This document shows, in pieces, positions 625-17,926 of a stretch of DNA of 64,000 nt. Every line of letters begins with the position of its first letter. The stretch's first letter is position 1. A program made the translations under genes and the position numbers. This stretch comes from an uncultured Candidatus Saccharibacteria bacterium. Lineage in GTDB: Bacteria; Patescibacteriota; Minisyncoccia; Phycocordibacterales; UBA9973. Under the pieces are notes generated by a model. It was not told the DNA's origin, did no database searches, and saw only the letters and a program-made list of their open reading frames with translations. The stretch lies in NCBI GenBank assembly GCA_964596395.1, contig CAZQSY010000001.1:27763-91762 (forward strand), given 5' to 3'.

Positions 625-1113
625 CTAAAATTTTTCACCTGGTCTTGCTTGTGCCACCGCCTGCCGGATAGCCGCTTCCAGTTTTTCAGGCTCATCGGTT
701 CCTATGCGGTAAATTTTCCCGTCCTTCATGCGAATTTCAACCGCGTCAAAACCGGAAACGTTAAAAATCCACGTCTTCGGCCAAAGCCACAATCGTATGC
801 CCCAACCGTAATACCAGTGATTTTTTACTCTTGTTGCTGACACGATTTCGCTCGTCGCGAATTTTTTGTGAAAAATGCCGTAGCCGAACTTGACCGTCAC
901 ACGCTCCTCATCCACATTGACCGTAAGCGCGCCGAAGGACGAAAGAACGAATAAAATTAACGCCATCACCGAGGTCACGAGTAAATTTGTGCCCGAGTCG
1001 TAAGAAGGCGGCTCAGCTCTCGCCGTAATTTGGACCCACGCGAACAGAACCAGAACAGCCAGCGTGACAAAAACCATCAGATAACCGATTTGTGTGTGGC
1101 GATATGGTTGCAT
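625..1113 (-). CDS. membrane-anchored bacterial PH (bPH_2/YdbT-like) domain protein
   Basis: two N-terminal TM helices followed by ~90 aa soluble domain with W/G-rich bPH-like pattern; weak family assignment. Confidence 0.35.
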   Translation of the reverse strand: MQPYRHTQIGYLMVFVTLAVLVLFAWVQITARAEPPSYDSGTNLLVTSVMALILFVLSSFGALTVNVDEERVTVKFGYGIFHKKFATSEIVSATRVKNHWYYGWGIRLWLWPKTWIFNVSGFDAVEIRMKDGKIYRIGTDEPEKLEAAIRQAVAQARPGEKF

Positions 1114-1130
1114 AATTAGCTAATTATACC

Positions 1131-1154
1131 ACGTCATGATTCGAATAATGACGT
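1131..1154. promoter_or_regulatory. inverted repeat ACGTCAT-N10-ATGACGT downstream of AbrB-like gene
   Basis: seen directly: ccACGTCATgattcgaataATGACGTcc. Confidence 0.3.
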
Positions 1155-1207
1155 CCAAATTTCGATACCTAACACGAATGTTTATAATTGTACGAAAAAC
1201 GATATTC

Positions 1208-1438
1208 TTACTTCTTCCAATCCCTAATTTGCACACCTCCATTGATCTTTTTCACCGAGAGTTTCTGCTTTTCCTTCCAGCCCAGGGATTTCAGAATTTC
1301 CACCGGAATTGAAACAACCAAGCTGGTACTGCCCGATTTCATCAATTTCCTCACGTTTTTATCCTTGTATTTTTTATCCGCCATGATATTATCGCTTATT
1401 TTAATTTTATCCACGTCAGTATTCAAATAATGATTCAA
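1208..1438 (-). CDS. SpoVT/AbrB (MazE-like) family small DNA-binding protein
   Basis: 76 aa; core LMKSGSTSLVVSIPVEILKSLGWKEKQKLSVKKINGGVQIRDWKK matches swapped-hairpin AbrB/MazE fold pattern; paralog at 21080..21259. Confidence 0.5.
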   Translation of the reverse strand: MNHYLNTDVDKIKISDNIMADKKYKDKNVRKLMKSGSTSLVVSIPVEILKSLGWKEKQKLSVKKINGGVQIRDWKK

Positions 1439-1452
1439 ATACTGACGTCTTA
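1417..1452. promoter_or_regulatory. 36-bp palindrome (11-bp arms ACGTCAGTATT / AATACTGACGT) immediately upstream of AbrB-like gene; putative autoregulatory operator
   Basis: seen directly in sequence; shares ACGTCA...TGACGT core with 1131..1154 repeat. Confidence 0.35.
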
Positions 1453-1494
1453 TTTCTCCATCATACCACCAGTCTGACCCTAGCAGAAACTGTT

Positions 1495-2235
1495 TTATCC
1501 TAGGGTAACTAGACTCATTCCCCCGTCAACGGTTAACACCTCGCCACACAGAGCATCATTTTTTGCCAGAAAAACTACCGCATCGGCGATTTCCTCTGGT
1601 TGTATCATTCTTTTTATTAGATGGACCTGCCCTAATCTTTTTTGTTTCTTTGCATTAAGATTATCCCACATGGGAGTTGCCACACGCCCCGGAGCAATAG
1701 CATTAACGAGTATTTTGGGCGCGAGATCTTTGGCTAAATTTTTCGTCCAATTTTCCAGGGCGGCCTTCAGGGCAGAATAGGCGGCGGCGGCTGGTCTACC
1801 GTATCCCAGTCGTCCGTGTATTGAGGAAATATTTACTATTTTCCCCGTCCGCATTAAGGGAAGAACGTACTTGGTTACCATCACAGCGCTTAGAAGGTTG
1901 TTCCGAAAAATACTTTCAAGCACTTTGACATTGGTTGGGTCATCGTTTGCGTCAAAAATCCCTGCGTTATTTACGAGCACATCAAAATGAGAAAATTTCC
2001 GCTTTATCTTCTTAAACATTTCAGCTACTTCTTTTTCGTTGGCAGCATCAGCGCGAATAAGCAAGTTTCCTTTAGAGTAAAGATTGCACTCCCTTAAAGT
2101 TTCTTGAGCAGCTTTACGGTCCGATTTAAAATTGATCACCACCGAAGAACCTTCCTTGGCAAAAACAATGGCAATTGCTTTGCCAATTCCCTTTGAGGCC
2201 CCAGTGACCAGCACAACCTTATTTTTCAGTTCCAT
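1495..2235 (-). CDS. short-chain dehydrogenase/reductase (FabG-like 3-oxoacyl-ACP reductase family)
   Basis: VLVTGASKGIGKAIA Rossmann motif, NNAG, YSALKAAL (YxxxK catalytic); start reset to internal ATG (MELKNKVVLVTG). Confidence 0.75.
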   Translation of the reverse strand: MELKNKVVLVTGASKGIGKAIAIVFAKEGSSVVINFKSDRKAAQETLRECNLYSKGNLLIRADAANEKEVAEMFKKIKRKFSHFDVLVNNAGIFDANDDPTNVKVLESIFRNNLLSAVMVTKYVLPLMRTGKIVNISSIHGRLGYGRPAAAAYSALKAALENWTKNLAKDLAPKILVNAIAPGRVATPMWDNLNAKKQKRLGQVHLIKRMIQPEEIADAVVFLAKNDALCGEVLTVDGGMSLVTLG

Positions 2236-2306
2236 TTTTCCATCATACCACCAAATCCCGCATGCCATCAAACTATCGTACGGAATCCTTGCTTCCATCC
2301 TTCACT

Positions 2307-3431
2307 TTACTGGTATTGTATATATATCGGCTTCGGGGAGAGATTAAGGATTTCAGCCGGTGTCATCAGGCGGGAATCTTTTTCGAGCAGGTCGTTTTTG
2401 TAGAAAAGTTTAAAGCCCGTGAACTGCACCGGCTCTTTGTGGACAAATTGCTTATAGGTATTAATTTTTCTTGCCTGATGCCCCCAGCCATCCATATCCA
2501 TGACAATCTGCGTTTCGGGCAAGGGTTTGATGTTTTGGTAATTCGTAACCATGTTCTGAGTAAAACGGTGTATTACCAAAATTTTCGGCGTAAGCTCGTT
2601 TTCCCTCACGACTCTGGCCAAAAAATCCGCCGCGAAATTTATGTCTTTGGCATCGTACGTCCCGATGACTTTGCCCGGTCTGGCCCCCGTCTTCATTGAA
2701 AATTCCGGGTCAATGCCCAGATGCACGTTCGGAAGCTTAAAATATTTTTCAAGCGGCGGAAGCTCTGCCTCTAAATTTGAAAGCCCGACCTGGATATCCA
2801 AGAAAATAAGCGCACCTATTTTCTCGGCCATTTTGAGAACTTTTTCAATCTCTTTGGCCGGCATGCGCGCCCGGTACTTGCCGTCGGCTCCGGCGCTTCC
2901 TTGCGCCACCACCGCGATATAGTGAAGCGCTGGAGTGGCGGGCGTGCCGGGGTCAGCTAATTTCCATTTTTCAACTTCAGCTTTCAGTTTCGCGAGCATT
3001 TCTTCTTCGGGGTACTCGCCGAGCGCCCCCATCTTCTTGGAAAGCAGATTGCCGTAATAGGCGATAATCCGGGAAAAAGGCAGTATCGCTCCGCCGTTCG
3101 GATAAACCGTTTTCGCCGGCCAGAGATTGGGCTTGGGAGGCAAAAGCGGTATGGGCTCGCCGGTTTTCGGGTCGATTTTGGGCTCTACTGTTTTCGGCGG
3201 CGGGTTGTTGGCCAATTCTAAAAGCTTCGCGTCATAAGCCGTTTTGTCGAGCACGGGCGGAGCGGGTTTTTTCTTTACTTCTTCGGCAATTTTCTTTACT
3301 CCGTTTATCACCTTACTAGAAAACACTTCCGGAATAAAAAAATAAAGCAGGACGATAGATATAAGCAGGAAAAAAAGCAAAAAGAGAGTACCACTTGACG
3401 TACCTTTCTGCTTTGAAAAAATATTCATCAT
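2307..3431 (-). CDS. hypothetical N-terminally anchored, Pro-rich linker protein with C-terminal TIM-barrel-like (possible glycoside hydrolase-like, DUF4015-like) domain
   Basis: TM helix + PPPKTVEPKIDPKTGEP linker + ~250 aa conserved-looking domain; family not securely recognised. Confidence 0.25.
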   Translation of the reverse strand: MMNIFSKQKGTSSGTLFLLFFLLISIVLLYFFIPEVFSSKVINGVKKIAEEVKKKPAPPVLDKTAYDAKLLELANNPPPKTVEPKIDPKTGEPIPLLPPKPNLWPAKTVYPNGGAILPFSRIIAYYGNLLSKKMGALGEYPEEEMLAKLKAEVEKWKLADPGTPATPALHYIAVVAQGSAGADGKYRARMPAKEIEKVLKMAEKIGALIFLDIQVGLSNLEAELPPLEKYFKLPNVHLGIDPEFSMKTGARPGKVIGTYDAKDINFAADFLARVVRENELTPKILVIHRFTQNMVTNYQNIKPLPETQIVMDMDGWGHQARKINTYKQFVHKEPVQFTGFKLFYKNDLLEKDSRLMTPAEILNLSPKPIYIQYQ

Positions 3432-4762
3432 TCGCGGGATTTTGCGAGTCCTATAATTTCTTCAACTGTACTGCCTTTTTTGTAAATTAGCAAATCATCG
3501 GTTGGCTTCTTCCATTCCTCCTGTATCGGGCCGACGATTCTCCAGCTTTCAAGTATCTCTTCACTTGAGGCGAACAAACTATGGTCGGAATTAAACGCGC
3601 TGTACAAAACCTGTTCGTAGGCCTCCGGTAATTTTTCATAATGGTCTTTGAAATGAAAACTCAGAACATGCTGGGAGAGTTCCCGTCCGTAGCCCGGCTT
3701 CTTCGCCCATACGCTGAACTTTATGCCCGCGTCCGGCTGTAAACGCAGCAGAAGTTCATTTGATTCGTGCTCCTCGCTTTTCTTGTAACGTATTTTTATT
3801 TCGGTAAACCTGTCCCGCAGCGCTTTGCCGTGGGTGAGCGCCATCGGCACCCCATGCCATTTCGGGTCGTCAGATTCGAGCTGTACCGACACGAATGTCT
3901 CAACATTTGATTTTTCGTTTCCGACTTCTTGCCTGTATCCTTCATACTGTCCGCGCGCGGCGCGCGCGACTTTCAAATGTTTGAGGGTATCTTGACGGCA
4001 CGAAGAAACCTCAGACAAATCGCACTTCGGGGGCAAATCCATCAGAACAAGCGACAGAAGCTGAAGCAGATGGCTCGGCACATAATCCCGCAAAGCGCCG
4101 GTCTGCTCGTAAAAATGCGCCCTGTTTTCGATACCCAGCTCTTCGCTCGCCGTTACCTCGATATTTTCTATAAATTCATTATTCCAAGTTTTTTTGAAAA
4201 GCGAATTGCCGTCGCGGAAGACAATTATGTTCTGCGCCGCTTCCTTGGCCAGATAGTGGTCTATACGGTAGACCTCTTCGGGTTTGAAATATTTTTCTAT
4301 GTGTTCGATTAAGTCCTTGGCGCTCGCGTAATCTTTCCCGAAAGGTTTTTCTAGAAGAAGTTTGCTTTTTCCGCGCTTCGGCAATCCGGCTTTCCCGATG
4401 CATTCTACTATCCCCTTGCATGCCTCGGGCGGTACGGAAAGATAAAAAATTCTCTGCGCCGGCTGGCCGAAAGATTTTTCAATCCCGTCCAAAACTTCTT
4501 CGAGCTTTCTACAATCTCCTTCTTTCTCGGCATCCAGGCGATGAAGTTCCAAATTTTGCCCGACGAATTTCAAATCGCCAGAAGCACGGCACAGGTCTTC
4601 CGCCGAAAGACCGGTCTTCCTGGTAATTCCCACTATCCGAAAATCCTCGGGAAGCATGCTCGCCTGGTGAATCGCTTCAATGGCCGGCAAAAGGTACCGC
4701 CGAGACAAATCGCCGGAAATTCCGAAGATTATTAAAATTGTTGGTTCTCCTTTGTTTGGCAT
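3428..4762 (-). CDS. zwf: glucose-6-phosphate 1-dehydrogenase
   Basis: N-terminal IFGISGDLSRRYLLPAI and RIDHYLAKE active-site signature (G6PD RIDHYLGKE). Confidence 0.85.
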   Translation of the reverse strand: MPNKGEPTILIIFGISGDLSRRYLLPAIEAIHQASMLPEDFRIVGITRKTGLSAEDLCRASGDLKFVGQNLELHRLDAEKEGDCRKLEEVLDGIEKSFGQPAQRIFYLSVPPEACKGIVECIGKAGLPKRGKSKLLLEKPFGKDYASAKDLIEHIEKYFKPEEVYRIDHYLAKEAAQNIIVFRDGNSLFKKTWNNEFIENIEVTASEELGIENRAHFYEQTGALRDYVPSHLLQLLSLVLMDLPPKCDLSEVSSCRQDTLKHLKVARAARGQYEGYRQEVGNEKSNVETFVSVQLESDDPKWHGVPMALTHGKALRDRFTEIKIRYKKSEEHESNELLLRLQPDAGIKFSVWAKKPGYGRELSQHVLSFHFKDHYEKLPEAYEQVLYSAFNSDHSLFASSEEILESWRIVGPIQEEWKKPTDDLLIYKKGSTVEEIIGLAKSRE

Positions 4763-4765
4763 ATT

Positions 4766-5671
4766 TCACTTTCCGTTTAAATCGTGCCCGCCGAAACCAT
4801 TTCTTATCATGGCAAGCAGTTTGGTGGCAAAATTTACTTCTCCTTTCTGCGAACGCAGACGCACTTCAAAAGACGCTTCTATAGACGGCATTTCCATGCC
4901 CATTTCTTTGGCTGTCTCCAGCGCGAAACGCGTCTCACCCGATTCTTTCACGATACCCTCTATCCCCGCCTGTTCCGGATTTTTTTTCAGAGCATCGCGA
5001 GTAAGCTCGTTTAGCCAGGAAGTAATCACACTGTGGCGCTGCCAAACCTCACCCGCCGAAACTAAATCAAGATTTTTGTACGGCCCTTCTTTCAAAAGGC
5101 GATATCCCTCGGCAAGGGATTCCATCATACCATACTCAATCGCGTTGTGGACCATTTTCACAAAATGGCCGGCGCCACTCTCGCCAAAGTAGTGATACCC
5201 GCCTTCTGGCTTGGCTAATTTTTCCAAAACGGGCTCGATTGTTTTAAATGTTTTTGAGTCGCCGCCCACCATCATAGAGAATCCGTTTTGGTAGCCCCAC
5301 ACCCCGCCGCTCGTCCCGACATCTATCAGGACAGAACCGTTTTCAAAAACCAGCTCTGCTCTTTTTTTGGTCAGGCGAAAATCAGAATTTCCTCCGTCAA
5401 TTAAAATACTTTCTTTGGGCACCAGCTTCAGCCATTCATCCAATTCTTTATCAACCGCTTCCGCCGGCACCATCATCCAGATAATTACCCGCTCTCCTTT
5501 AAACGAGCTTACAACTTCTTCTTTTGAATAAGCCGGTATCATCCCCAAAACCTTCATTTCGTCTATCGGACCCCTGCTCCTATTATGGGCAATCACGGCA
5601 AACCCGCCCTCGTGAAGCTTTTTTGCTATTTGCCCTCCCATTCTGCCCAAACCGGAGATTGCTATCTTCAT
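4766..5671 (-). CDS. gnd: 6-phosphogluconate dehydrogenase (decarboxylating), short YqeC/Gnd-like form
   Basis: MKIAISGLGRMGGQIAKKL NAD(P)-binding start, ~300 aa; operon position between pgl and zwf. Confidence 0.75.
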   Translation of the reverse strand: MKIAISGLGRMGGQIAKKLHEGGFAVIAHNRSRGPIDEMKVLGMIPAYSKEEVVSSFKGERVIIWMMVPAEAVDKELDEWLKLVPKESILIDGGNSDFRLTKKRAELVFENGSVLIDVGTSGGVWGYQNGFSMMVGGDSKTFKTIEPVLEKLAKPEGGYHYFGESGAGHFVKMVHNAIEYGMMESLAEGYRLLKEGPYKNLDLVSAGEVWQRHSVITSWLNELTRDALKKNPEQAGIEGIVKESGETRFALETAKEMGMEMPSIEASFEVRLRSQKGEVNFATKLLAMIRNGFGGHDLNGK

Positions 5672-6318
5672 TTTGAATAAAAAATTGTTAATAATGGAAC
5701 TTTTTTCAAAATTTGCGCCGGCTGCTTCGCGATGTCAATACTTTTTTGTAAATCCTCTAGTGCTTCCCTTTTTTCTTCCCCCCGTGCAAACACCACCGCT
5801 TCATCTAGTTTTTCTATGGCCCTCGGTGTCATTGTAATGCGTGAAAAAGCCGGCGTTTCATAACCGCAAGCGTATTCCTCTGAATATACCGCCGGGCTTT
5901 CGGGCAATATGCCGGCAGTGTGCCCATCCGCGCCGACGCCGAACAACCCAATTTTGTAGTCCGCGAAAGAAAGTTCCTCTTTCAACACTTCGTTGAAATT
6001 TTTGGCCGTAGACGCAAAGTCATCCCCAGTGAGCACGGGAATAATTCTTGCCTGCGGAAAATTAAAACCTTTTGATATGAGCTTGGCAAAATTTGAATCG
6101 GAATGCCCCGGCGGGCCGTATCTTTCGTCGGTTAAAGTCACAGTCAAGTTCTTAAGAGAATGCGCCCGCAAAATTTCGGAAATCCCCGCGCCTACTAGCA
6201 CAGAAGACCCTCCGGTCGCGAAGAACAGAACCTTGTTTCCTTCTTCTAGTTTCTTCAGTATGGAAGAAGCGACAAACTCCGCAGAGTTTTCTAACTTCGG
6301 TATGTTTATGAAATTCAC
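5668..6318 (-). CDS. pgl: 6-phosphogluconolactonase (NagB/DevB family)
   Basis: glucosamine-6-P isomerase/6PGL family pattern FFATGGSS...; overlapping stop/start with gnd. Confidence 0.7.
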   Translation of the reverse strand: MNFINIPKLENSAEFVASSILKKLEEGNKVLFFATGGSSVLVGAGISEILRAHSLKNLTVTLTDERYGPPGHSDSNFAKLISKGFNFPQARIIPVLTGDDFASTAKNFNEVLKEELSFADYKIGLFGVGADGHTAGILPESPAVYSEEYACGYETPAFSRITMTPRAIEKLDEAVVFARGEEKREALEDLQKSIDIAKQPAQILKKVPLLTIFYSK

Positions 6319-6332
6319 TCAAATATTATACA

Positions 6333-7373
6333 CTACAAAGCCATTCCTGTATTTTCCTCTGTTAGTACCCCGCGCTGTTTTGGCAACACTCCGTTTTTTA
6401 AGTCGTCCCCTGCTTCTCTTGTCCCCGCCTCTAGAGACAAACCCAAATCTTCTCTGAAATATGCAATTGTTTTCTTGAGCCCTTCTTCTAGTTTTATCTT
6501 CGGCTCCCAGCCGAGCTTCTCGCGGGCTAAAGATATGTCTGGTTTTCGCCTTTCTGGGTCTCCAGACGGCAAGGGCATCTTCACTATTTCGCTTTTTGAA
6601 CCGGTAAGTCGAATTACTTTTTGCGCCAATTCCGATATGGTAAATTCATCCGGGTTGCCGATATTCACGGGACCATAAAAATTTTCACTTTCCATAAGTT
6701 TTACAAAACCCTCTACCAAATCAGACACATACTGAAAACTCCGGGTCTGCTCTCCTTCGCCGTATATAGTTATTGGTTTGCCCTGCAATGCTTGAACAAT
6801 GAAATTTGAAACCACTCTCCCGTCATCTTTAGACATATACGGCCCGTATGTGTTGAAGATGCGCACAATCCTTATGTCCACCCCGTAAAAACGGCGGTAA
6901 TCGCAAAATAGCGTTTCTGCCGCGCGCTTTCCCTCGTCGTAACAAGCCCTGATGTTTGTCGTGTCCACGTTCCCTCGATAATTTTCCTTCTGCGGATGTT
7001 CCTGCGGATTACCGTAAACCTCGGAGGTGGAGGCCTGAAAAACGCGGGCTCCATGCACCCTTGCGTATTCTAAAACATTCAAACTGCCAAAGATGTTTAT
7101 CTTCATCGTGTTTATCGGGTCTCTCTGGTATTGGGGAGGCGAAGCGGGGCAAGCCAGATTATAAATCTGGTCTACCGACTCATCTAAAGGCAGAGGATTC
7201 ACAATGTCGTGCCCAAAAAATCTAAAATTAGGATGGTCTAAAAATTTTTCTATGTTCCTCTCACTTCCACTCAAAAAATTATCTAAACTTATGACCTCGT
7301 TCCCCTCCTTTAAAAACCTATCAGTGAGATTCGTACCTATAAAGCCCGCTCCGCCGGTTATTAATATTTTCAT
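6333..7373 (-). CDS. NAD-dependent UDP-glucuronate decarboxylase (UDP-xylose synthase)-like extended SDR
   Basis: [16 protein letters not shown], YxxxK in [11 protein letters not shown], strong similarity pattern to UXS family (NTYGPYM...). Confidence 0.65.
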
Positions 7374-7375
7374 GT

Positions 7376-8332
7376 TTATTGTCTAATTAAATTGCCATCT
7401 ACCCTCCAATCAGGCGCGGGTAAATCGGCGCCCCACACACCTTCATGGTCGACGGCATTAAAAAACAGTATCGTCTTTATTAAAGGAAATTCGTCAATAT
7501 CGGAATACATGTCTTCTATCCATGCGGATTTGCGGGCATAATCTCCGGCCACCCCGAGTTCAACTATGTAAAGCGGTTTCATGAGCGGCGACAAGCGACT
7601 GTATTTTTCCTGGACCGATTCTTTAAAAGAACGAGCGTGGCCGTAGTACAAAACGTCAAAATCAGGAAAACTGTAAACCGGGAATCCTACTGAATCCACA
7701 TATTCGTCGCCCGGCCAGTATTCAAGGGCTTTGCCGTCACCGGCCGGGGACCAAACGTAAGATGTATTTTCCGCCAGCTTTCTGCATTCCGACACGAAAT
7801 GTTTATATGCGCCGACAAATTCCGCCGGCTTTCCCCCAGACCAATCGTACCTTACCGTCAGGTCGTGGTCCATCTCGTGCGCAAAAGAAACTTCAACTTT
7901 TCCCGAAACTTTTCCGAATTCAGTGCAGACTTTTTTTATATCCGCATCGTATCTACCCAAAGTTATATCGGTAAAAATTTTTTCCTTCCTCGCCGGTTCC
8001 CGAGCCCACGGCTCTAGAGTAATGAAAAGCGAGCGGTTTCTCTGTTTTGATTCCTCCGCCTTGGCTTGAAAATCAAAAGCGTCAAAATTAATCCAGGAAA
8101 AATAATAGTGGTCTACTGCCAGTCCCGTTTCACCTTTCAGTGTACCTTCATAATCGTAAACTCCATACCTGACTTCCTTTCTCTCACACCAAAAATCCAA
8201 GAAGGCGCAGTTTTCTTTGCCTGATTGCCAGATTAGTGCCTGAGGTATATTTTGAGACCTAGAAAAAAGCAGACATGCGAAAACCGCTAAGATCGCCAGC
8301 AGTATAAAAAAGTAAACATATTTTTTAATCAT
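7376..8332 (-). CDS. glycoside hydrolase, GH26-like (clan GH-A) with N-terminal membrane anchor
   Basis: VSFAHEMD matches GH26 acid/base motif (W-x-R-x-x-HE-x-N); candidate nucleophile in YIVELGVAG. Confidence 0.5.
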
Positions 8333-9920
8333 TGATTTTTATGTCAAAAACTCTTTTTTCTCTGTAATGCTTCGTAACTATGACCCATATGCTTAAGATA
8401 TAGTACAGCACTATAAGGTAAGAAAAATAATAGTAGCCCGCTACTTGTGGGCTGTATTCCGAAAAGTACAATATGGTCAGATAAACTGCGACAAGAACCA
8501 CATATGGATTCAATATACCGAAAGAAAAATCTCTTTCAACCGCTTCTCCCTTCGGGGTAATCATTATTTTGAAATCAGACCCCGAAACCACATCTAGGAT
8601 GGCCATAATAATACCATACATCGCGTATGGCCACCTAACCAACTGAAAAACCGCCACTTCCCAAGAAATTATTTTTGCGTTCTCGGGCCGGAACAGTCCG
8701 TTCCTTTTCAAAAAAAACACTATAAGGAGAACCGAGAAATCTAAAAACAAACTCAGCAACAAGAAAGAGAGGTAAGGTATGCTAACTAAGGGCACGCCTA
8801 AAACTACCGATATGAGAGGCAGAAAAAGCCCCAAAAACATAACGCCCGAAAATAAAGGATACCATAGCTGAGAAAATAAAAACTGAAATCTGAATTTTGG
8901 GGTGAGTTTTTTCCATACTTTCGGCATGAGGGTCAAAAGGAGAACCGTCAAACTTCTAGACCAGCGAAATTCTTGAATCATGCAATCGGAAAAAGTCGCC
9001 GGCCCTTCCCCACGGGCTATGGCGTAAAGCGCGTGCGCGCCCCGCCATCCGGCGGCGTTCAAAAGAAGCGTGGTTGAATGGTCTTCGGCAAATTCAGGCC
9101 CGAGCCCGCCTATCTGTTTTAGCGCTTTTGTTCTGACGGCATAGTGGGAACCGATACAAAGAGGCGCGAAACCATTAGTGTGCCCGGCCTGCAAAGGTCC
9201 GTGCATGATACTTTCGGCGTAAAGTCTTGCTCTGGCGCTCCAACTTTCCTTCTCGTTTAGATTACAAATGCTCGGCGCTGATACATATCCGACCTTATCA
9301 TCGGCAAAAGGCCTGAGTATTTCTTCAAGATAGTTTTTACCGGGAATATGGTCAATGTCAAACTGTACAACTATGTCGTAAAATTCGTACCCATACTTGT
9401 CGTAAAAAAAGGCTAAATTTCCTTCCTTTGAACCTGCGCGTCTGGGCCACCTCGCGTTGTGATATCCTGCGGCATCCTTTCTACAAGAAATTCGCACATT
9501 GTTTTCTTTGCACCACTTTATGGTTTCCGGTACAGGGTTTTCATCGGCCACCCAGGTGTCATGAGGAAACTTTTGCTCAAGACATCCTATGAGGGTTTTT
9601 TTTAGTACCGAAAATGGTTCTGCCGGCGTTTTGGTAACTACCATCGCCACCTTAAATTTCGGTACGGGGAGCTTACTGTCTGCAACTTTCATTCGCGCCA
9701 CAAAATAAAAGAAATAGGCCGGTATAAAATAGTTCCAAAAAATTATGATTGAGTTAAGTACAAGGCCGTAGGCGGTAACAAAGTGCCTTTTCTCGAACCA
9801 CCATAGCGTAAAGAAGGTGAGCAGGAAAAACCAAAAAATAATCAAAAGCAGGAGCGTGCGCTTCTGCCTTGGGTTTAAAACATTCCTGTATATTGAATTA
9901 CTGTCGGCAAATTTTGCCAC
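8325..9920 (-). CDS. processive family-2 glycosyltransferase (cellulose/chitin/hyaluronan-synthase-like, multi-TM)
   Basis: DID...D motifs and QEFRWSRS (QxxRW processivity motif); N- and C-terminal TM helices. Confidence 0.75.
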   Translation of the reverse strand: MAKFADSNSIYRNVLNPRQKRTLLLLIIFWFFLLTFFTLWWFEKRHFVTAYGLVLNSIIIFWNYFIPAYFFYFVARMKVADSKLPVPKFKVAMVVTKTPAEPFSVLKKTLIGCLEQKFPHDTWVADENPVPETIKWCKENNVRISCRKDAAGYHNARWPRRAGSKEGNLAFFYDKYGYEFYDIVVQFDIDHIPGKNYLEEILRPFADDKVGYVSAPSICNLNEKESWSARARLYAESIMHGPLQAGHTNGFAPLCIGSHYAVRTKALKQIGGLGPEFAEDHSTTLLLNAAGWRGAHALYAIARGEGPATFSDCMIQEFRWSRSLTVLLLTLMPKVWKKLTPKFRFQFLFSQLWYPLFSGVMFLGLFLPLISVVLGVPLVSIPYLSFLLLSLFLDFSVLLIVFFLKRNGLFRPENAKIISWEVAVFQLVRWPYAMYGIIMAILDVVSGSDFKIMITPKGEAVERDFSFGILNPYVVLVAVYLTILYFSEYSPQVAGYYYFSYLIVLYYILSIWVIVTKHYREKRVFDIKIND

Positions 9921-9992
9921 CAGAAATTTATACCTGATTTAGAAAAATTTTACAACTTCACGATTATTAGCTAATATGCCTACCAGAAAACT

Positions 9993-11021
9993 ATGAATAA
10001 AAAAATTTTAGTCACCGGAGGTCTAGGATATATCGGCTCACACACAGTAGTGGAATTGCTGAAATCCGGATATTCGGTCCTCGTGGTTGACAACCTCTCA
10101 AATTCAAGCAAAAAGATATTAGAACAAATAGAGAAAATAACCGGCGCAAAACCGGACTTTTTGAACATTGACTTATGCGAAGATTTCTCGGTAAATAAAA
10201 TGGCAGAAAGTAACGGCGACATAACCGACATAATACATTTCGCGGCCTGTAAATATGTGGGAGAATCAGTGCAATCGCCCTTGAAATATTACAAAAAAAA
10301 CCTGTTCCCTTTGGTAAATTTACTCCAAGCGTTTGATGGCAGAAAATTAAACATTGTTTTTTCTTCGTCTTGTACTGTTTACGGCACACCTGACATCTTG
10401 CCTGTGACCGAAAATTCTCCGGTAAAAAGAGCCGAATCGCCTTACGGGAACACCAAACAAATCTGCGAAGAGATACTCACGGACGCTTCAAAAGCGAAAG
10501 AGGAATTAAAAGCGATCTCGTTAAGATACTTCAACCCCATCGGCGCTCATGAATCAGGACTGATCGGCGAATTGCCTTTAGGAAAACCGCAATGTTTAGT
10601 GCCTCTCATAACCCAAAGCGCAGTCGGAAAAATAGGGCCGCTCGTTGTGAACGGCATAGATTACGATACACCCGACGGCAGCCCGGTCCGGGATTATATT
10701 CATGTTGTTGATGTAGCTCAAGCACACCTCAAAGCGATAGAAAGAATTGAGAGCGGGGCTATGCAAAAAAATCACGAGATTATAAACATAGGCACAGGAA
10801 AAGGGACTTCCGTGCTGGAAGCGATAAAAACCTTTGAAAACACAACTGGAGTGAAAGTTGATTACAAAATAGGTCCCCGACGAAAAGGAGATATAGAAAA
10901 ACTATGGGCGGATGTTTCACTTTCGGAGAAAATGCTCGGCTTCAAGGCGCGATACGGCCTGGAAGATATGATGCGATCTGCCTGGAGGTGGGAAAAATAT
11001 CTAATGGAAGAGAATTGGTAA
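9993..11021 (+). CDS. galE: UDP-glucose 4-epimerase
   Basis: MNKKILVTGGLGYIGSHTVVEL, YGNTK (YxxxK), full-length GalE-like. Confidence 0.85.
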   Translation: MNKKILVTGGLGYIGSHTVVELLKSGYSVLVVDNLSNSSKKILEQIEKITGAKPDFLNIDLCEDFSVNKMAESNGDITDIIHFAACKYVGESVQSPLKYYKKNLFPLVNLLQAFDGRKLNIVFSSSCTVYGTPDILPVTENSPVKRAESPYGNTKQICEEILTDASKAKEELKAISLRYFNPIGAHESGLIGELPLGKPQCLVPLITQSAVGKIGPLVVNGIDYDTPDGSPVRDYIHVVDVAQAHLKAIERIESGAMQKNHEIINIGTGKGTSVLEAIKTFENTTGVKVDYKIGPRRKGDIEKLWADVSLSEKMLGFKARYGLEDMMRSAWRWEKYLMEENW

Positions 11022-11023
11022 CT

Positions 11024-11896
11024 TCATTTTTCCGAGGCGGCGCGACTCTTCCAGTCATCCAAAAAAAGCTTTATGTAGTCTCTGATGTCAATTTTCGGTT
11101 TCCAACCAAGAATTTCTCTGGCTAAGGTATCGGTGCATAAAGTTTCTTGCGCCTCTCCTTCCTTATCCGGAGCGTAGATTATCTCCCAATCAAACATGTC
11201 AGCAATTTCTTTTATGGAATAATTCTTGCCTCGGCCAAGTTCGAAAGTATAACCCCAAGCTTGTCTGTCTTTGATGGAAGACAACGCGCTAACTATGTCT
11301 TCGATATGTGTAAAATCTCTGCGTTTACTGCCGTCCCCGTAGATGGTGAGCGGAAGATTTTTCTCCACACACGCTTCCCAAACACCTATCAAAGTCGTAT
11401 AACTTCCCTCCTTGAGCTGATACGGACCATAAACATTATAAAACCTGGCAATCGAAGCTTTGAGCCCGTAGATTTTTTGGAAAAGCGTCATTATCTCTTC
11501 TCCGACATCTTTACTGAATGTGTACGGATTTTTGAATTTTCCAGAGTGATGCGAACTACTGCCCGCGTAAACAAGTGGAATATTATTTTTTGCACAAAAA
11601 TCCGCTATCTTGAGAGTAGCATTGGCGTTAGTGGTAAAATATTCTTCCGGCCGGCTGAAAGAGGGCTGAATGCGAGCAATGGCGGCCAAATGAAATACAA
11701 CGTCAAAATTTCCGTATTTTGAATAATCATTAATCTCTCTTATGTCTGCCCTGACATATTCCGCGCCTTCTTGATGGTTCACCTGAAGGCCTGTAGAGTA
11801 GTTGTCTATAGAAACAACCCTATGCCCTTCCTCTAAGAGCTTAATTATCAAATTAGTTCCTACAAACCCCGCCCCGCCGGTTACAAGGATTTTCAT
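11024..11896 (-). CDS. NAD-dependent epimerase/dehydratase family protein (nucleotide-sugar)
   Basis: MKILVTGGAGFVGTNL Rossmann motif, YxxxK (YTFSKDVGEE). Confidence 0.7.
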   Translation of the reverse strand: MKILVTGGAGFVGTNLIIKLLEEGHRVVSIDNYSTGLQVNHQEGAEYVRADIREINDYSKYGNFDVVFHLAAIARIQPSFSRPEEYFTTNANATLKIADFCAKNNIPLVYAGSSSHHSGKFKNPYTFSKDVGEEIMTLFQKIYGLKASIARFYNVYGPYQLKEGSYTTLIGVWEACVEKNLPLTIYGDGSKRRDFTHIEDIVSALSSIKDRQAWGYTFELGRGKNYSIKEIADMFDWEIIYAPDKEGEAQETLCTDTLAREILGWKPKIDIRDYIKLFLDDWKSRAASEK

Positions 11897-12570
11897 AGTT
11901 TCAAAATTTCTTTTACCTTCTCCACAAGGGCGCTCCTGGCTTCTCCGGAAAAATTGTGGTCGCCGTCAAGATCAAGCATTTGTATTTTCTTGCTTAACCT
12001 ATCCAAATTTGTTTCAGCGAGCACATTGTCTTGTTTTGCCCGAATTGCGATTATTTCCGTGATTTCTGAAAAAGCATTGTACTCCGTGATAATATTCTCT
12101 ACTTTCATCCTCTCCTGCCAATACTCCGCTGGTACCAGTCTCCTTAATCCATACTTTGGGTCTAGCTCTGAAACGCCATTAATATCTATGTGTGTTCCAG
12201 GTTTAGATTTGTATCTGTTTACCGACCTAGTGATATCAAGGTCAAAAGGAGGCGCTAGAAAAATCGCCTTCCTTACTCCTTCCGGCTTTGCCAAAGCCGC
12301 TATTATTGTACCTTGAGAGTGACAAACCAAATCTATTATAGTTTCTGGGTTTTCCTCACGCGTTTTTGTTATTTTTTCCTTCAGCATTTTCACCGCCTTG
12401 CTAAAAGGAACGACTGTCATTATCTTCTTATCCCAATCTATGTCGTTGTAATCAAACAAAAATGAAAGAACTTCGGGCATCGCTTGCGCTATATCCGTGA
12501 ATGTCCCGCAGTCGTCCCGAAGCACCCCGAACCCGTGCGAGAAAATTACAATGTGTTTTTTATTTTGCAT
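11893..12570 (-). CDS. alpha/beta hydrolase (esterase/lipase-like)
   Basis: nucleophile elbow CHSQG (GxSxG), ~225 aa. Confidence 0.5.
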   Translation of the reverse strand: MQNKKHIVIFSHGFGVLRDDCGTFTDIAQAMPEVLSFLFDYNDIDWDKKIMTVVPFSKAVKMLKEKITKTREENPETIIDLVCHSQGTIIAALAKPEGVRKAIFLAPPFDLDITRSVNRYKSKPGTHIDINGVSELDPKYGLRRLVPAEYWQERMKVENIITEYNAFSEITEIIAIRAKQDNVLAETNLDRLSKKIQMLDLDGDHNFSGEARSALVEKVKEILKL

Positions 12571-12573
12571 CTT

Positions 12574-13101
12574 TTACTTCAACGTCAGATTGCGAAACAA
12601 ATCCACAAAGAAATACCCCAAAATCATTAGACTTCCAAAGGGTTTTAGTTTCACGTCTTTTCGATCCTTGGCGACAGATTCATTGAAAGTAAGGGCGCAC
12701 CGGCGAACAATCTCTGGGTCGGATGCCTGCCGCATGCTGACCCCAGCTTTCGCAAACTTTTCGCCGGTTTTACTGAAACAATCAGGATTCTGGGCGCCGA
12801 AAATCACATTTTTTATTCCAGCCTCTATTATCGCGTCAGCGCAACTTTTTAGAGCCGGATTCTGTCTCTCGCAGCACGGCAGGAGCGTGCTGAAAAGAAC
12901 AGCTTCAGAGCTGAAAAGGATTTTTTTCTTTAAAATTTCATCGGTCAAAATTGTCTCAGCGTGATATATACCGTCGTCCGAGTTGGCGGAATACGCAATG
13001 ACATTCCCGTTATCAACCAGACACGCCGAAACAATCCCCTTTGGGTCTTTAGATTTTTTAGCCGTTTCAAATAAAAAGTCAAAAACTTCTTTCTCGTTCA
13101 T
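12574..13101 (-). CDS. cytidine/deoxycytidylate deaminase zinc-binding domain protein
   Basis: HAE ... PCC motif arrangement of CDA fold; spacing atypical so moderate. Confidence 0.4.
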   Translation of the reverse strand: MNEKEVFDFLFETAKKSKDPKGIVSACLVDNGNVIAYSANSDDGIYHAETILTDEILKKKILFSSEAVLFSTLLPCCERQNPALKSCADAIIEAGIKNVIFGAQNPDCFSKTGEKFAKAGVSMRQASDPEIVRRCALTFNESVAKDRKDVKLKPFGSLMILGYFFVDLFRNLTLK

Positions 13102-13125
13102 GCTTCACCATTATAGCACGGATCG

Positions 13126-13509
13126 TCAATTAAAATTCACCCTGAAACTGTACATGCCCATACTACAGGTGCCCTGGAGCGGTTTGCCGGCAATGGGTGT
13201 CCCGATATCAATCTCGGTGTCGCCGGAGGGCGATAAAATCTTCTGAAAGCCGACCGAAGGAATCGAAAGCGCGGATGAACAGTCATACACGCCGTTCGTT
13301 TTCACTATAAGTTTCGTCGGTATACCCGCTTTGGCGTTTGAGACCTGCGGAAAATATCCCCCGCCGGCATTAACCGTAACATATTGCACGCCATCTATTA
13401 TTTCTGAATTTTCCACAGGGCCATCCGTCCCGCCCGCGCCGCCCCAGAAGATGATGGCCACGCCCGCGAGAAGCCCGATGGTTAAGATTACGGAAGTAAT
13501 TTTATTCAT
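13126..13509 (-). CDS. small secreted/anchored protein with Cys/Met motif (GTCSMGMY), possible metal-binding
   Basis: N-terminal TM/signal; overlaps start of HMA-transporter gene (operon). Confidence 0.3.
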   Translation of the reverse strand: MNKITSVILTIGLLAGVAIIFWGGAGGTDGPVENSEIIDGVQYVTVNAGGGYFPQVSNAKAGIPTKLIVKTNGVYDCSSALSIPSVGFQKILSPSGDTEIDIGTPIAGKPLQGTCSMGMYSFRVNFN

Positions 13510-14579
13510 ATGTTGAAAATTGGATTAATTATACCTAAACCCGCCAAACCGGAAAGGAGCGCGAAGAGACCGAGACCCGTCACGAAAACCCCGGCTGATT
13601 TGAAGAAAAGCGGCGCGTGTTTCGAATGCGCGAAAGAAGCCGAACCGAAAGAAAGAAGCGACAAAACGGGCAAGGTTCCCAGAGCGAAAGCCGTCATTAT
13701 AAGAAGACCGGAAAGAAAAGAACCCGAAGAAATCGCCGCGACCTGCATCGACTGGGTGAAACCGCACGGCAGGAAAAACGTGCCGAAACCGACCAATACC
13801 GGGGTAAAAGTTCTGTGTTCTATCTTTCTGAAAAATCCGAAAATCGACGAAGGCAGGGTCAGTTTATTTTTGCGAAAAACGCCGGCCAAATCAAGCCCGA
13901 GAGCAAGCATCATCAGAGAAGCGATTATCCCGAGTATTCCCGTGAAAGTGAAATTTATGCCCACCGCTCCGCCTAGCGCCCCCAGTATTCCGCCCAAGAG
14001 AGCGAAACCGCCCAGCCGGCCGGCATGAAACAGTATAAAATTCTTTTTATCGCTCACATTGTCTTGCGAAACTTTTGCCGAAAGAGAGAGTACCAGACCC
14101 CCGACCACCGCCAGACAACTCGAAACCGAAGCAATCAGACCGATTACGAAACTTGCCGTCGGGGTGGTTTTCCCGCCGATGCCGATATTCAAAATCCCGG
14201 ATTTTTGCAGAACAAAGAAAAGCGCGAGGAGTAAAATTCCCAGAGGCATGGCCAGCCAAATCCCCCCGTTTTCCGATTTTTCCACGACTGCCGCCCTTTC
14301 TAAAGAGAGCGCGTAGCCGTGCTGTTTTATTTTTTGCGAGAGAGAGTCGGCGACTTCCTCTGCGCCAAGGTCGCTTTCAATCTGCACGTCAACCGTTTCC
14401 TTTTTCAAGTCAACTTTTACTTTTTCCACTCCTTCCGCTTCTTTCAAAACATCTTCAATCAAGATTTTGCAAGAAGCGCAATGGGTTCCGGAAACATGAA
14501 ATGTGTGTGTTTTCATAAAATTTTTTAAATACTGAAGTTCGACTTCAGTATTTTTAAATCGGCTCATCCTCGGGCGCAC
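13506..14579 (-). CDS. heavy-metal-associated (HMA) domain fused to DsbD_2/TauE-like multi-TM permease
   Basis: N-terminal HMA fold with GTHCASC metal-binding loop; C-terminal ~250 aa polytopic membrane domain. Confidence 0.55.
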   Translation of the reverse strand: MRPRMSRFKNTEVELQYLKNFMKTHTFHVSGTHCASCKILIEDVLKEAEGVEKVKVDLKKETVDVQIESDLGAEEVADSLSQKIKQHGYALSLERAAVVEKSENGGIWLAMPLGILLLALFFVLQKSGILNIGIGGKTTPTASFVIGLIASVSSCLAVVGGLVLSLSAKVSQDNVSDKKNFILFHAGRLGGFALLGGILGALGGAVGINFTFTGILGIIASLMMLALGLDLAGVFRKNKLTLPSSIFGFFRKIEHRTFTPVLVGFGTFFLPCGFTQSMQVAAISSGSFLSGLLIMTAFALGTLPVLSLLSFGSASFAHSKHAPLFFKSAGVFVTGLGLFALLSGLAGLGIINPIFNI

Positions 14580-15084
14580 GGTTATTGTTCGTCTCTATAA
14601 ACTCCTTGATTTTGTCCTCGTCAATTTCCGAAAGCTTAAGAAGATACCCCCAAGAAGTGAGCGCCACCGGCACGTCCAGATTTTCTCTCGGTAGCATAAT
14701 TTTCTTACCAGAAGCTTTACCAAAAGCGTCTTTGATTCTTTCCACATCTTCCACAGGAAGCCCCTGTTTGTACCAAACCACCGCCGCGCCGTGTTCCATG
14801 CTGTGCAACACTAGTTCATCGGCCACGGGTTCGCCTTTTATTCCCGGCCCCGCCGTACCCACCCAATGCCATCCGGTAGTTGGTGGATTCGAACTGTACG
14901 GTGGGTGCACCTCACTCTCACCGACATGCTTCGCCCCATCGTCGGGCATTTTCTCGCCCATCAAAGGTATGGTTTCCCTTTCCTTTTGTTTGGCGGCGTC
15001 CCGGCCAGAATACCAAACTCCACCTAATATCATCAGTAGAGTCACCAACACAATTCCCACGGTTACTTTGTGTTCCGTTGCCAT
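14554..15084 (-). CDS. DUF3105 family membrane-anchored protein
   Basis: HSMEHGAAVVWY conserved motif typical of DUF3105. Confidence 0.5.
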   Translation of the reverse strand: MATEHKVTVGIVLVTLLMILGGVWYSGRDAAKQKERETIPLMGEKMPDDGAKHVGESEVHPPYSSNPPTTGWHWVGTAGPGIKGEPVADELVLHSMEHGAAVVWYKQGLPVEDVERIKDAFGKASGKKIMLPRENLDVPVALTSWGYLLKLSEIDEDKIKEFIETNNNRAPEDEPI

Positions 15085-15105
15085 TGTTCAATTTTACCCG
15101 ACTGT

Positions 15106-15936
15106 TTAAATTCCGCAACCTGTCCCGCTCTTTTTTTCCTGCGGCTCAACCTGGGACATTACTTTTCTGAATCCCGAAGCGCTGGAATATTCCGCCGAAA
15201 TAACTTCCTTCGGGTCGGCTTTTTCCCAATTTACGCCTTTTTGAGCGAAGAAACTTTTTATCGTTTCATACTGCGACGGGAACCAGTAAGTATTCGCTTC
15301 CAGGGCAGCCCGGTACATTTCTCTCTCGCTCGCGCCTTGTGCAGCCATGAGTTCAAGAAGTCCCAGCATGGCCATGCCATGATTGCAGTCGGGGAAATGA
15401 GTCGGGTTGTCGCAACATGGCCGGTAGATATTCTTAGCAACTTTTTCAACCAAAGCCTGCTGTTCATAAGTTAGTTCTACAAAAGAATGCGCGCCGTAAT
15501 GTTCCATTGCGTCACCCTTCGCGAGCGTCCAGCCGCCGGTGGAGGCAAAATTCCCCGCCTTCGCCAAGGCTTCGGCGGGCAAGCCCGCCCCGCCATACGT
15601 CATCATTGGACCTTCTGTTAGAATTAGATTTTTATTGGCAAGCCCGAAAGCCCAGAGTATGTTGAGCATCATTCCGGAATTTTCTTTGGTAATTATCAGG
15701 TTTTTATTGTTCGTGCCATACAGTAATCTTTTATCCGCTTCGGAAAACCCGCCCCTTTCTCTATACAAACTTTCAAACTTATCTTTGTCGATTACTCCAG
15801 CTTCAACCATTTTCCATCCAAGATCCCCCCAATCAAGCAAGGCATGATTTTCTCGCACCACCGGCGAAAAACCCACAAGTAACACGATCAGAATAATTAG
15901 AGCGGAATACAAAATCTCTTTTATTTTTTCTATCAT
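15106..15936 (-). CDS. hypothetical membrane-anchored protein with conserved Cys/His cluster (PCCDNPTHFPDCNHG)
   Basis: start reset to ATG at 15936 (MIEKIKE...), listed ORF N-terminus overlaps CcdA gene in another frame. Confidence 0.4.
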   Translation of the reverse strand: MIEKIKEILYSALIILIVLLVGFSPVVRENHALLDWGDLGWKMVEAGVIDKDKFESLYRERGGFSEADKRLLYGTNNKNLIITKENSGMMLNILWAFGLANKNLILTEGPMMTYGGAGLPAEALAKAGNFASTGGWTLAKGDAMEHYGAHSFVELTYEQQALVEKVAKNIYRPCCDNPTHFPDCNHGMAMLGLLELMAAQGASEREMYRAALEANTYWFPSQYETIKSFFAQKGVNWEKADPKEVISAEYSSASGFRKVMSQVEPQEKKSGTGCGI

Positions 15937-16712
15937 ATGTAGAAGATTAAGATACCGATAATAATCATGGCGATGCCGGCCCAGAGCCGAAGCCCCGCCA
16001 TGTTTTCGCGTTTCCACGTTCCTACCTTTTCCACCATTTCTTTCTTGGCCGATATTAGTAACACCGCCGCGAGCGGCAAGATGAGAATCAAGTTGTAAAG
16101 CAGCAGGTAGCCGAAACCGGCGAAGTACGTCACCTGGTCGCGTAAGAGTCCTATGACCATCAGGTACGGCCCGCCCATGCATGGAAACTGGCAAATGCCC
16201 ACCAGAAACCCCAACCCGAAGACCGCCGGGAAAGAAGCTTTGTCCATCAGCTTAGCCATCGCGCCATGCATGGCGTCGGGAACTTTCAGCTTGATTGGGA
16301 ATTTCGGAAAGAAACGGTTAAGCAAATTCAAAGTCCCGAAAACAATAAGCATAGTTGCTCCCAGTTTACCCATGAAGTGCGGCGTGTTAAAGATATGCAG
16401 TACTTTCAAGACCCCCAGACCAATCAGGAAATAAGCGATAAATATTCCCACCACATAAGTTCCTCCCAGTTCCAAAATTTTCCTCCGGCTCATTTGTATC
16501 CCGAAAAGAAAAGCAATAGTGATGAGTAAGATTGAAAACGAACACGGGTGCACGCTGTCGAGCAAGGCCGAAACGAGAAGGAGTGGCAAGAGCCATGTGC
16601 CTCCGCGGCTGACCTCCCAGAGCAGAGAAGAAACCGCCGGACTGTTTTTGAGAATCACCAAACCAACGATAGCGGCAATGATGATACTGACAGTAATAAT
16701 TATTTTTTTCAT
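15933..16712 (-). CDS. ccdA: CcdA/DsbD-family cytochrome c-type biogenesis / thiol-disulfide transmembrane protein
   Basis: LLDSVHPCSF and FPCMGGPYL conserved Cys motifs, 6-7 TM. Confidence 0.7.
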   Translation of the reverse strand: MKKIIITVSIIIAAIVGLVILKNSPAVSSLLWEVSRGGTWLLPLLLVSALLDSVHPCSFSILLITIAFLFGIQMSRRKILELGGTYVVGIFIAYFLIGLGVLKVLHIFNTPHFMGKLGATMLIVFGTLNLLNRFFPKFPIKLKVPDAMHGAMAKLMDKASFPAVFGLGFLVGICQFPCMGGPYLMVIGLLRDQVTYFAGFGYLLLYNLILILPLAAVLLISAKKEMVEKVGTWKRENMAGLRLWAGIAMIIIGILIFYI

Positions 16713-16719
16713 GATTTTA

Positions 16720-17253
16720 TTAAGGCGTTACGTTCGCCTTGATTTCTAATTGCAGCACTTCACCGTTCGAATCTTCTAAGAAAACAAACCGGTCGACCAT
16801 GCCGACACCGGCCGGTCCGTGCGCATTCGGATCATACACGACTTCTATATCTCTCGACTCTCCCGCCCTGATTGTCTCGTTCAATCTAGGCACGGAGCTT
16901 CCATGCCCCGGCATACCAAAAGGACCTTTGCGGGTTCCGTCCGGCCGGATGAGGTAAGCTGTCGTGCACATGCAGGAAGTCGTCAGCTTCGAAATTTCGA
17001 CCTCCCCGCTTCCGGCGTTGGTTATTTTGAACACCTTGCTTACATTCCCGTTTTTCATGGAGATCGTTCCGAAGTCGTACAATTTTTCTTCAGTAGTCAA
17101 AACATCGCCCTTTCGTGCTAGATGGAAATTACCCGACGTACTGATGCTGTCTTGCGAATTCACTTTGCTGCCCGGCCTGGCATACAAGAGCAGTCCAGCG
17201 AGAAGCACCACGATAACAATTACAAACGAAAAGATTCTATTTTTGTCTGTCAT
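16720..17253 (-). CDS. DUF1573 domain protein (Ig-like, commonly CcdA-associated)
   Basis: YDFGTI...TNAG..E..I motif pattern; N-terminal TM anchor. Confidence 0.5.
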   Translation of the reverse strand: MTDKNRIFSFVIVIVVLLAGLLLYARPGSKVNSQDSISTSGNFHLARKGDVLTTEEKLYDFGTISMKNGNVSKVFKITNAGSGEVEISKLTTSCMCTTAYLIRPDGTRKGPFGMPGHGSSVPRLNETIRAGESRDIEVVYDPNAHGPAGVGMVDRFVFLEDSNGEVLQLEIKANVTP

Positions 17254-17340
17254 AAATTTTTAACAAAGCAAATAGTAAAAACCCCTGTCAGGGATTTCAG
17301 AAAGACACAGCCAGAGATTTTTACGACAAAAATTCTAGAG

Positions 17341-17754: not shown

Positions 17755-17760
17755 TTTGTT

Positions 17761-17880: not shown

Positions 17881-17926
17881 AATGATTTTTAAATTACCCT
17901 TGTTCTTAATCTCGACCTTTATAATT

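Follow-up and report, generated by a model that had tools for sequence, protein, structure and literature searches.

Probable counterpart of the rhizobial APS exopolysaccharide operon in a member of Patescibacteria

The closest described system to the genes considered here is the uxs1-uxe-apsS-apsH1-apsE-apsH2 operon of Sinorhizobium meliloti. In reports on this operon, its product is described as a cryptic, cyclic di-GMP (c-di-GMP)-induced, Congo-red-binding 'arabinose-containing polysaccharide' (APS; PMC7902896, PMC9495663; PMC12560781 also describes APS), the APS-minus genotype in use is a deletion of uxs1-uxe (PMC13438883), and Uxe interconverts UDP-xylose (UDP-Xyl) and UDP-arabinose (UDP-Ara) as well as UDP-glucose (UDP-Glc) and UDP-galactose (UDP-Gal) (PMC9938287). 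We compared with this operon a cluster of five genes located at positions 6333-11896 of a 64,000-nucleotide stretch (the window) of contig CAZQSY010000001.1, which comes from an uncultured Candidatus Saccharibacteria bacterium. The cluster encodes a family 2 glycosyltransferase (GT2), a hydrolase of glycoside hydrolase family 26 (GH26), a UDP-glucuronate decarboxylase/UDP-xylose synthase (UXS), a GalE-type epimerase and one more extended short-chain dehydrogenase/reductase (SDR). In our judgment, these genes probably form an APS-type, synthase-dependent exopolysaccharide module, the counterpart of rhizobial uxs1-uxe-apsS-apsE in a patescibacterial (Paceibacteria-like) genome. An earlier note on this DNA, written from the sequence alone, regarded a processive synthase fed with UDP-xylose as unusual for bacteria, but the S. 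meliloti APS operon is a described counterpart: the type of system is known, and only the host, the minimal composition and the additional SDR are new here.

Reading of the open reading frames (ORFs) and Pfam domains of S. meliloti 1021 pSymB gave, in this order, a UXS (348 aa), a GalE-like protein (328 aa), a GT2 (651 aa), a DUF995 protein (204 aa), a GH26-like protein (325 aa) and a second DUF995 protein (170 aa), with an AraC-type gene adjoining; this set agrees with the uxs1 coordinates published in PMC13438883. The DUF995 ORFs occupy the positions of apsH1 and apsH2, the GH26-like protein is encoded by the fifth ORF and is ApsE by position, and the counterpart of the window GT2 is the ORF in the apsS position. 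An annotated plasmid of Rhizobium leguminosarum carries genes for a divergently transcribed AraC-family regulator, UDP-glucuronic acid decarboxylase, GalE, GT2, a glycosyl hydrolase and a DUF995 protein, with an 8-nt overlap between its GT2 and hydrolase genes, the same as for the pair in the window.

The best window match of each of four S. meliloti proteins falls inside 6333-11021. Uxs1 is 60% identical to the window UXS and Uxe 39% identical to the window GalE, both being reciprocal matches; the protein in the ApsS position is the reciprocal best match of the window GT2 (49-50% identity; 49% over 513 aa, E 3e-176); and the GH26-like protein (locus L091, 7923-8900) is likewise a reciprocal match of the window hydrolase, at 28% identity (E 2e-39), with both of these scoring above the Pfam GH26 cutoff. 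The two loci differ in several respects. The genes run GT2-GH26-UXS, with GalE divergent, in the window versus uxs1-uxe-apsS-apsH1-apsE-apsH2 in rhizobia; the gene divergent from the synthase is accordingly GalE in the former and the AraC-type regulator in the latter; the window carries a 290-aa SDR without a counterpart in the rhizobial operon; the window GT2 is about 120 aa shorter than the rhizobial one, lacking both its N- and C-terminal extensions, and contains QEFRW in place of QEFQW; and the host belongs to Patescibacteria rather than to alphaproteobacteria.

The GT2 (531 aa; 8325-9920, minus strand) is predicted to be a membrane-integrated, processive, ApsS-like synthase. It matches the Pfam families Glyco_trans_2_3, Glyco_tranf_2_3 and Glyco_transf_21, scores 71 bits with the NCBIfam model of the CelA (cellulose-synthase) domain, well under the cutoff of that model, and retrieves the Rhodobacter BcsA structures 4hg6 and 4p00 at E 1e-17 in a search of Protein Data Bank (PDB) sequences. 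In the alignment with 4hg6, D188xD190, E279-D280, Q316EFRW320 and I454-T-P-K457 fall on the DxD, TED, QRGRW and gating-loop VTxK motifs of BcsA, respectively, E279-D280 being part of a TED-like AED and I454-T-P-K457 resembling the gating loop; two alignments of homologues show invariant columns at these motifs. The AlphaFold2 (AF2) model of this protein, built from 58 homologues (pLDDT 93.1, pTM 0.91), finds Escherichia coli and Rhodobacter BcsA as its top structural matches (TMq 0.65-0.71, with 0.71 for E. coli BcsA), followed by plant CesA and then by hyaluronan synthases. The motifs and the model agree with the BcsA-type catalytic geometry that the earlier note had proposed, and support the prediction of a BcsA-like processive synthase.

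The same note took QxxRW as the hallmark of the enzyme. This motif is indeed present, as QEFRWSRS at residues 316-323 (residues 316-320 are encoded at window positions 8961-8975), but its arginine is atypical, with nearly all members of the family having QEFQWSRS. The form QEFQW[S/A]RS is found in 99 of the 120 retrieved GT2 homologues and accounts for 83 of the 85 motif occurrences in the fetched loci (L003-L091); in this survey, QEFRWSRS is confined to the window and its closest relative, a metagenomic contig of the Joint Genome Institute (JGI; L085/L086). The arginine located two residues past the tryptophan, R322, is at least 90% conserved across the homologues.

The resemblance to the BcsA/BcsZ pair consists in the combination of a membrane-integrated processive GT2 that contains DxD, (T)ED, QxxRW and a VTxK-like loop with a putative extracytoplasmic endoglycanase. 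However, the window GT2 has an identity of only 18-20% to BcsA and is devoid of a PilZ domain (there is no Pfam match to PilZ, and the AF2 model stops after the last transmembrane helix, at residue 531). Furthermore, Pfam scans of the neighbouring ORFs detected neither a BcsB partner nor a GH8 enzyme; unlike in the bcs operons, the hydrolase belongs to GH26 rather than to GH8, and enzymes for UDP-pentose synthesis are part of the cluster. Another rhizobial BcsA-like GT2, BgsA (bgsBA), which can be likened to the window GT2 by description only, is reported to make a Congo-red-binding mixed-linkage beta-glucan and differs in binding c-di-GMP via its own C-terminal domain and in having the partner BgsB (PMC9495663, PMC13438883).

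The hydrolase gene (318 aa; 7376-8332, minus strand) overlaps the GT2 gene by 8 nt: its ATG lies inside the sequence ...AATGATTAA, 8 nt ahead of the GT2 stop codon. The arrangement of a multispanning GT2 with QEFRWSRS and an overlapping GH26-like hydrolase with FAHEMD, as first noticed in the sequence, is accurate. The Pfam GH26 match is marginal (24.4 bits, the cutoff being 20.2) and covers only a partial stretch of the protein, but three further lines make the prediction of a GH26 enzyme robust. First, a single-sequence PDB search matches the GH26 lichenase domain of Clostridium thermocellum endoglucanase H (CtLic26A) at E 8e-8. Second, a search with a profile of the family, built together with its alignment on 11 homologues (the only ones that the word-indexed search returned), matches 34 PDB sequences, all of them GH26. 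Third, the AF2 model is a TIM barrel (pLDDT 87.6) for which Foldseek ranks 1-11 are GH26 catalytic domains throughout, with CtLic26A first (TMt 0.76), then beta-1,3- and mixed-linkage xylanases (including 7xjr), and GH53 beta-1,4-galactanases appearing at ranks 12-13. FAHEMD occupies residues 150-155, H152, E153 and E258 are invariant in the 11 homologues, and H152-E153 align with the catalytic acid/base of CtLic26A and E258 with its nucleophile. Within GH26, the hydrolase appears to group with lichenases and beta-1,3-xylanases rather than on the mannanase branch, the profile E-values being 1.4e-32 for CtLic26A, 3.6e-14 for the beta-1,3-xylanase 2ddx and only about 1e-6 for mannanases, the weakest of the GH26 matches. 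A single N-terminal transmembrane helix (residues 3-25), with Lys-Lys ahead of it, would place the N-terminus inside and the barrel outside the membrane. CtLic26A, the closest solved relative (about 22% identity), is a secreted, cellulosomal and degradative enzyme, whereas the window hydrolase is apparently membrane-anchored and is genetically coupled to a synthase.

All three sugar-nucleotide enzymes that the earlier note had placed around the pair are encoded there. The UXS gene (346 aa; 6333-7373, minus strand) starts 2 nt after the hydrolase stop codon. Residues 2-311 of its product match the structures of human UXS1 (4gll, 2b69; 382 bits, E 1.8e-113), with about 60% identity to the human protein, and its STSEVYG and YDEGKR catalytic motifs align with those of human UXS1; combined with the similarity to S. 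meliloti Uxs1, these features mark it as a genuine UDP-xylose synthase. The GalE-type protein (342 aa; 9993-11021, plus strand), presumably a UDP-hexose/UDP-pentose 4-epimerase, is encoded divergently from the GT2, with a 72-nt spacer between the two genes, and scores 369 bits with TIGR01179 of NCBIfam (cutoff 262). It is also the best window match of S. meliloti Uxe (206 bits, compared to only 84 bits for the 290-aa SDR) and is, by homology, the candidate equivalent of Uxe that would interconvert UDP-Xyl and UDP-L-Ara. The 290-aa protein (11024-11896, minus strand) is the third extended SDR, a predicted nucleotide-sugar epimerase/dehydratase (Pfam Epimerase, E 1.6e-41) with the Rossmann motif GGAGFVG and YxxxK; its best PDB matches are the UDP-glucose 4-epimerases 7ys8 and 4zrm (E 1e-31). 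Supply of UDP-pentose is plausibly linked to the synthase.

To assess the distribution of these genes, we compared the window proteins by tblastn with 81 non-redundant loci that represent seven bacterial groups; the loci had been found through the GT2, and the hydrolase distribution was read from the same loci. A GH26-like gene is present in the flanks of the GT2 gene in 77 of the 81 loci, in 69 of them downstream and on the same strand. In addition, an 880-aa protein of Candidatus Taylorbacteria (P0118; L001, 10001-12643) is a fusion of an ApsS-like GT2 with a GH26-like hydrolase in which the hydrolase's own N-terminal hydrophobic segment serves as the linker; there are no sugar-nucleotide genes within 10 kb of this fusion. 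Given this near-universal pairing and the fusion, the synthase and the hydrolase constitute a conserved core rather than a chance association, in line with the synthase-plus-cognate-hydrolase logic that the earlier note had borrowed from cellulose operons. The UXS gene shows a different pattern, being detected (at least 300 bits, within 8 kb) at 48 of the 55 proteobacterial loci and at none of the 26 loci from other phyla. The distribution of the GalE-like gene parallels that of UXS, the few exceptions being one locus from Saccharibacteria (L003) and two from Cyanobacteria (L014, L021). Of the 50 alphaproteobacterial loci, 48 have a GalE-type epimerase along with UXS, as do the window and L085, and the divergent GalE-GT2 arrangement recurs in L003 and L085.

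The decisive case for a functional module that comprises all five genes comes from L085/L086, where they are found together in a different order: UXS adjoins GalE, across the GT2 from the hydrolase, and the 290-aa SDR follows GH26 in convergent orientation; the identities to the window proteins are 77% for UXS, 72% for GalE, 71% for GT2, 59% for GH26 and 77% for the 290-aa SDR. The immediate flanks of L085 (RF-1, FtsE/X, CTP synthase) are unlike those in the window, and the oxidative pentose-phosphate genes that follow the module in the window are not beside it in L085. Retention of the five genes through this rearrangement argues for a functional module.

More widely, GT2 homologues are abundant: there are thousands at about 50% identity in protein collections (2811 scored E <=1e-5 among 8000 candidates), and a scan of species-representative genomes yielded at least 540 stretches encoding a GT2 relative. 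The nearest homologues come from metagenome-assembled genomes of Patescibacteria; further relatives are found in Bacteroidota, Planctomycetota, Cyanobacteria, Verrucomicrobiota, Beta/Gammaproteobacteria and, above all, in Rhizobiales. The APS-type synthase/GH26 pair is no rhizobial speciality, being found in these six further groups. One of the fetched loci, L070 (JAHREI010000003.1), is labelled as Bacillus subtilis strain SK6B4 and yet carries UXS, GalE-like, GT2 and GH26-like genes of the rhizobial type (58% identity for UXS and 46% for GT2); we suspect that this assembly is contaminated or mislabelled.

An inverting GT2 would produce alpha-L-arabinopyranosyl or beta-D-xylosyl linkages, which are equatorial, as are those cleaved by enzymes of clan GH-A, such as GH26. 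The module could work as follows. UXS would decarboxylate UDP-glucuronate (UDP-GlcA), made by a dehydrogenase encoded elsewhere, to UDP-Xyl; part or all of this product would be 4-epimerised to UDP-L-arabinopyranose, either by the GalE-type enzyme or, less certainly, by the 290-aa SDR; the BcsA-like GT2 would polymerise the UDP-sugar at the cytoplasmic face and thread the chain through its own transmembrane channel; and the anchored GH26-fold enzyme, with its barrel outside the membrane, would trim or release the chain, much as BcsZ does with cellulose. The sugar would be arabinose and/or xylose, and the polymer might serve as matrix material or in attachment. If the APS-type reading is correct, the locus is a self-contained unit for making a pentose polymer within a reduced bacterial genome, a minimal block without the periplasmic DUF995 proteins, the c-di-GMP regulator and the outer-membrane parts, and it would be convenient for finding the polymer of the ApsS family and solving the structure of rhizobial APS. 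A bolder version, which we advance only tentatively, holds that a widespread two-gene ApsS/GH26 module with its own QEFQW signature is combined here with a complete in-cis supply of UDP-pentose, resulting in a minimal processive pentosan (alpha-L-arabinopyranan or beta-xylan) synthase system whose polymer is perhaps used for attachment of an ultra-small episymbiont to its host.

Several observations weigh against the assignment to the APS type. Neither of the two S. meliloti DUF995 ORFs has a tblastn match in the window at E 1e-3, and CuxR, the AraC-type, divergently encoded, c-di-GMP-responsive activator, has no tblastn match in the window either. UDP-glucose dehydrogenase, which the earlier note had named as a requirement of the UDP-Xyl route, was absent from the scanned window ORFs, which comprised those of 350 aa or longer and others besides. 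Because UXS is missing from all 26 non-proteobacterial loci, the presence of UDP-pentose genes in cis is not obligatory for the GT2 family at large. Gene adjacency alone is weak evidence of linkage, given that the window is a compact, near-gapless minus-strand array that runs on into the pentose-phosphate genes. Among solved structures, the hydrolase's nearest relative acts on a beta-glucan (lichenan). Finally, the rhizobial product is known as 'arabinose-containing', which would not make ApsS itself an arabinose transferase.

Four other polymers were considered. The earlier note leaned towards xylan, and under this explanation the inverting GT2 would polymerise UDP-Xyl directly, GH26 would be a xylanase, and the epimerases would serve other glycans. 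The close translational coupling of UXS to the GT2-GH26 pair fits this view, as does the appearance of beta-1,3- and mixed-linkage xylanases (2ddx, 7xjr) next after the lichenase in the searches with the hydrolase. The regular company of UXS with a GalE-type epimerase in alphaproteobacteria, the window and L085 argues against it, and so does the rhizobial product, which PMC7902896 and PMC9495663 describe as arabinose-containing, not xylose-containing. Because of this composition and because Uxe makes UDP-Ara from UDP-Xyl (PMC9938287), we prefer arabinose, alone or together with xylose, over xylan as a guess, and we consider a pure beta-xylan synthase unlikely.

We assign about the same low probability to a beta-glucan (cellulose or mixed-linkage) synthase in which the lichenase-like GH26 would be the analogue of BcsZ and the three SDRs would be neighbours through genome compaction, feeding unrelated glycans. 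Such a synthase would account for the hydrolase being nearest to CtLic26A and the GT2 nearest to cellulose synthases, for the label 'cellulose synthase (UDP-forming)' attached by JGI to many GT2 homologues, and for the 26 non-proteobacterial loci without UXS within 8 kb; the gapless, co-directional gene array in the window is also what compaction would produce. However, in L085/L086 the five genes have remained side by side through a rearrangement despite the different flanks, about 45 rhizobial loci have these four functions in a cluster as well, and a uxs1-uxe deletion serves to abolish the rhizobial polymer (PMC13438883). The distance of the GT2 from BcsA, with no PilZ and no BcsB among the neighbouring ORFs scanned, points in the same direction.

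Alpha-L-arabinopyranose and beta-D-galactopyranose have a common ring stereochemistry, so the synthase may accept UDP-Gal, produced by GalE, besides or instead of UDP-L-Ara and make a galactose-type or mixed Gal/Ara polymer. The presence of a GalE-like gene without UXS beside the GT2 in L003, L014 and L021, the GH53 beta-1,4-galactanases among the structural matches of the hydrolase and the additional activity of rhizobial Uxe on UDP-Glc/UDP-Gal (reported in PMC9938287) are compatible with this alternative. UXS would then be superfluous and yet is conserved in the module, and the GH53 enzymes rank under all GH26, so that this version appears improbable, more so than the two preceding ones.

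As for a synthase of beta-mannan or glucomannan that would work with a GH26 mannanase, also raised in the earlier note, most characterised GH26 enzymes are mannanases and one homologue of the hydrolase is automatically labelled 'beta-mannanase', but mannanases are the weakest GH26 matches of the profile, no gene of the GDP-mannose pathway was found among the ORFs scanned and the flanking enzymes are all of the UDP-sugar type, so we reject this possibility as extremely improbable.

Directly after UXS, at 3428-6318 on the minus strand, lie the oxidative pentose-phosphate genes, overlapping or separated by spacings of 3-14 nt: 6-phosphogluconolactonase (5668-6318), 6-phosphogluconate dehydrogenase (4766-5671) and glucose-6-phosphate dehydrogenase (3428-4762). 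The last of these overlaps by 4 nt the gene of a 374-aa protein (2307-3431, minus strand) that has an N-terminal hydrophobic segment and no match in Pfam, NCBIfam or PDB sequence searches. On the other side of the module, a 225-aa alpha/beta-hydrolase (11893-12570, minus strand; weak Pfam matches to Tle3 and Palm_thioest) lies upstream of the 290-aa SDR and shares 4 nt with the start of that gene; none of the related loci has a counterpart of it, and it was rejected as a member of the module and probably lies outside it. A scan of 1000-13200 for promoters and terminators gave counts near the shuffled expectation (24 versus 18.5 and 22 versus 14.7) and no operon boundaries.

The genes for CTP synthase, FtsX, FtsE and a peptide-chain release factor, which adjoin the module in L085 (3507-7743), appear to correspond to window positions 23478-27670, where ORFs of matching lengths, with CTP synthase alone confirmed by Pfam, are found about 12 kb from the module; this suggests a local rearrangement between the two genomes. 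Proteins that carry the names Candidatus Paceibacterota or Nomurabacteria show about 80% identity to the CTP synthase of the window; with the patescibacterial origin of the nearest GT2 homologues, this places the host in the candidate phyla radiation (CPR/Patescibacteria).

The window contains a second glycan gene cluster (53683-63398), which encodes a protein of 492 aa that combines an N-terminal extension of 170 aa with an SDR epimerase/dehydratase domain at the C-terminus, an aminotransferase of the DegT type, a DUF218 protein, a polyprenyl-phosphate sugar-phosphate transferase (PF00953), a GT4-type glycosyltransferase and an FkbM methyltransferase. At 49750-53607 on the minus strand is the gene of a 1285-aa protein whose sole recognisable part is an LCAT-like lipase/acyltransferase domain (residues 620-821). 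A metal-handling cluster is located at 13126-20230; it includes a fusion of an HMA domain with a DsbD_2 membrane domain (13506-14579), then several small membrane proteins for which Pfam gave no match, and beyond these a 767-aa ORF (17927-20230) that reads like a heavy-metal P-type ATPase.

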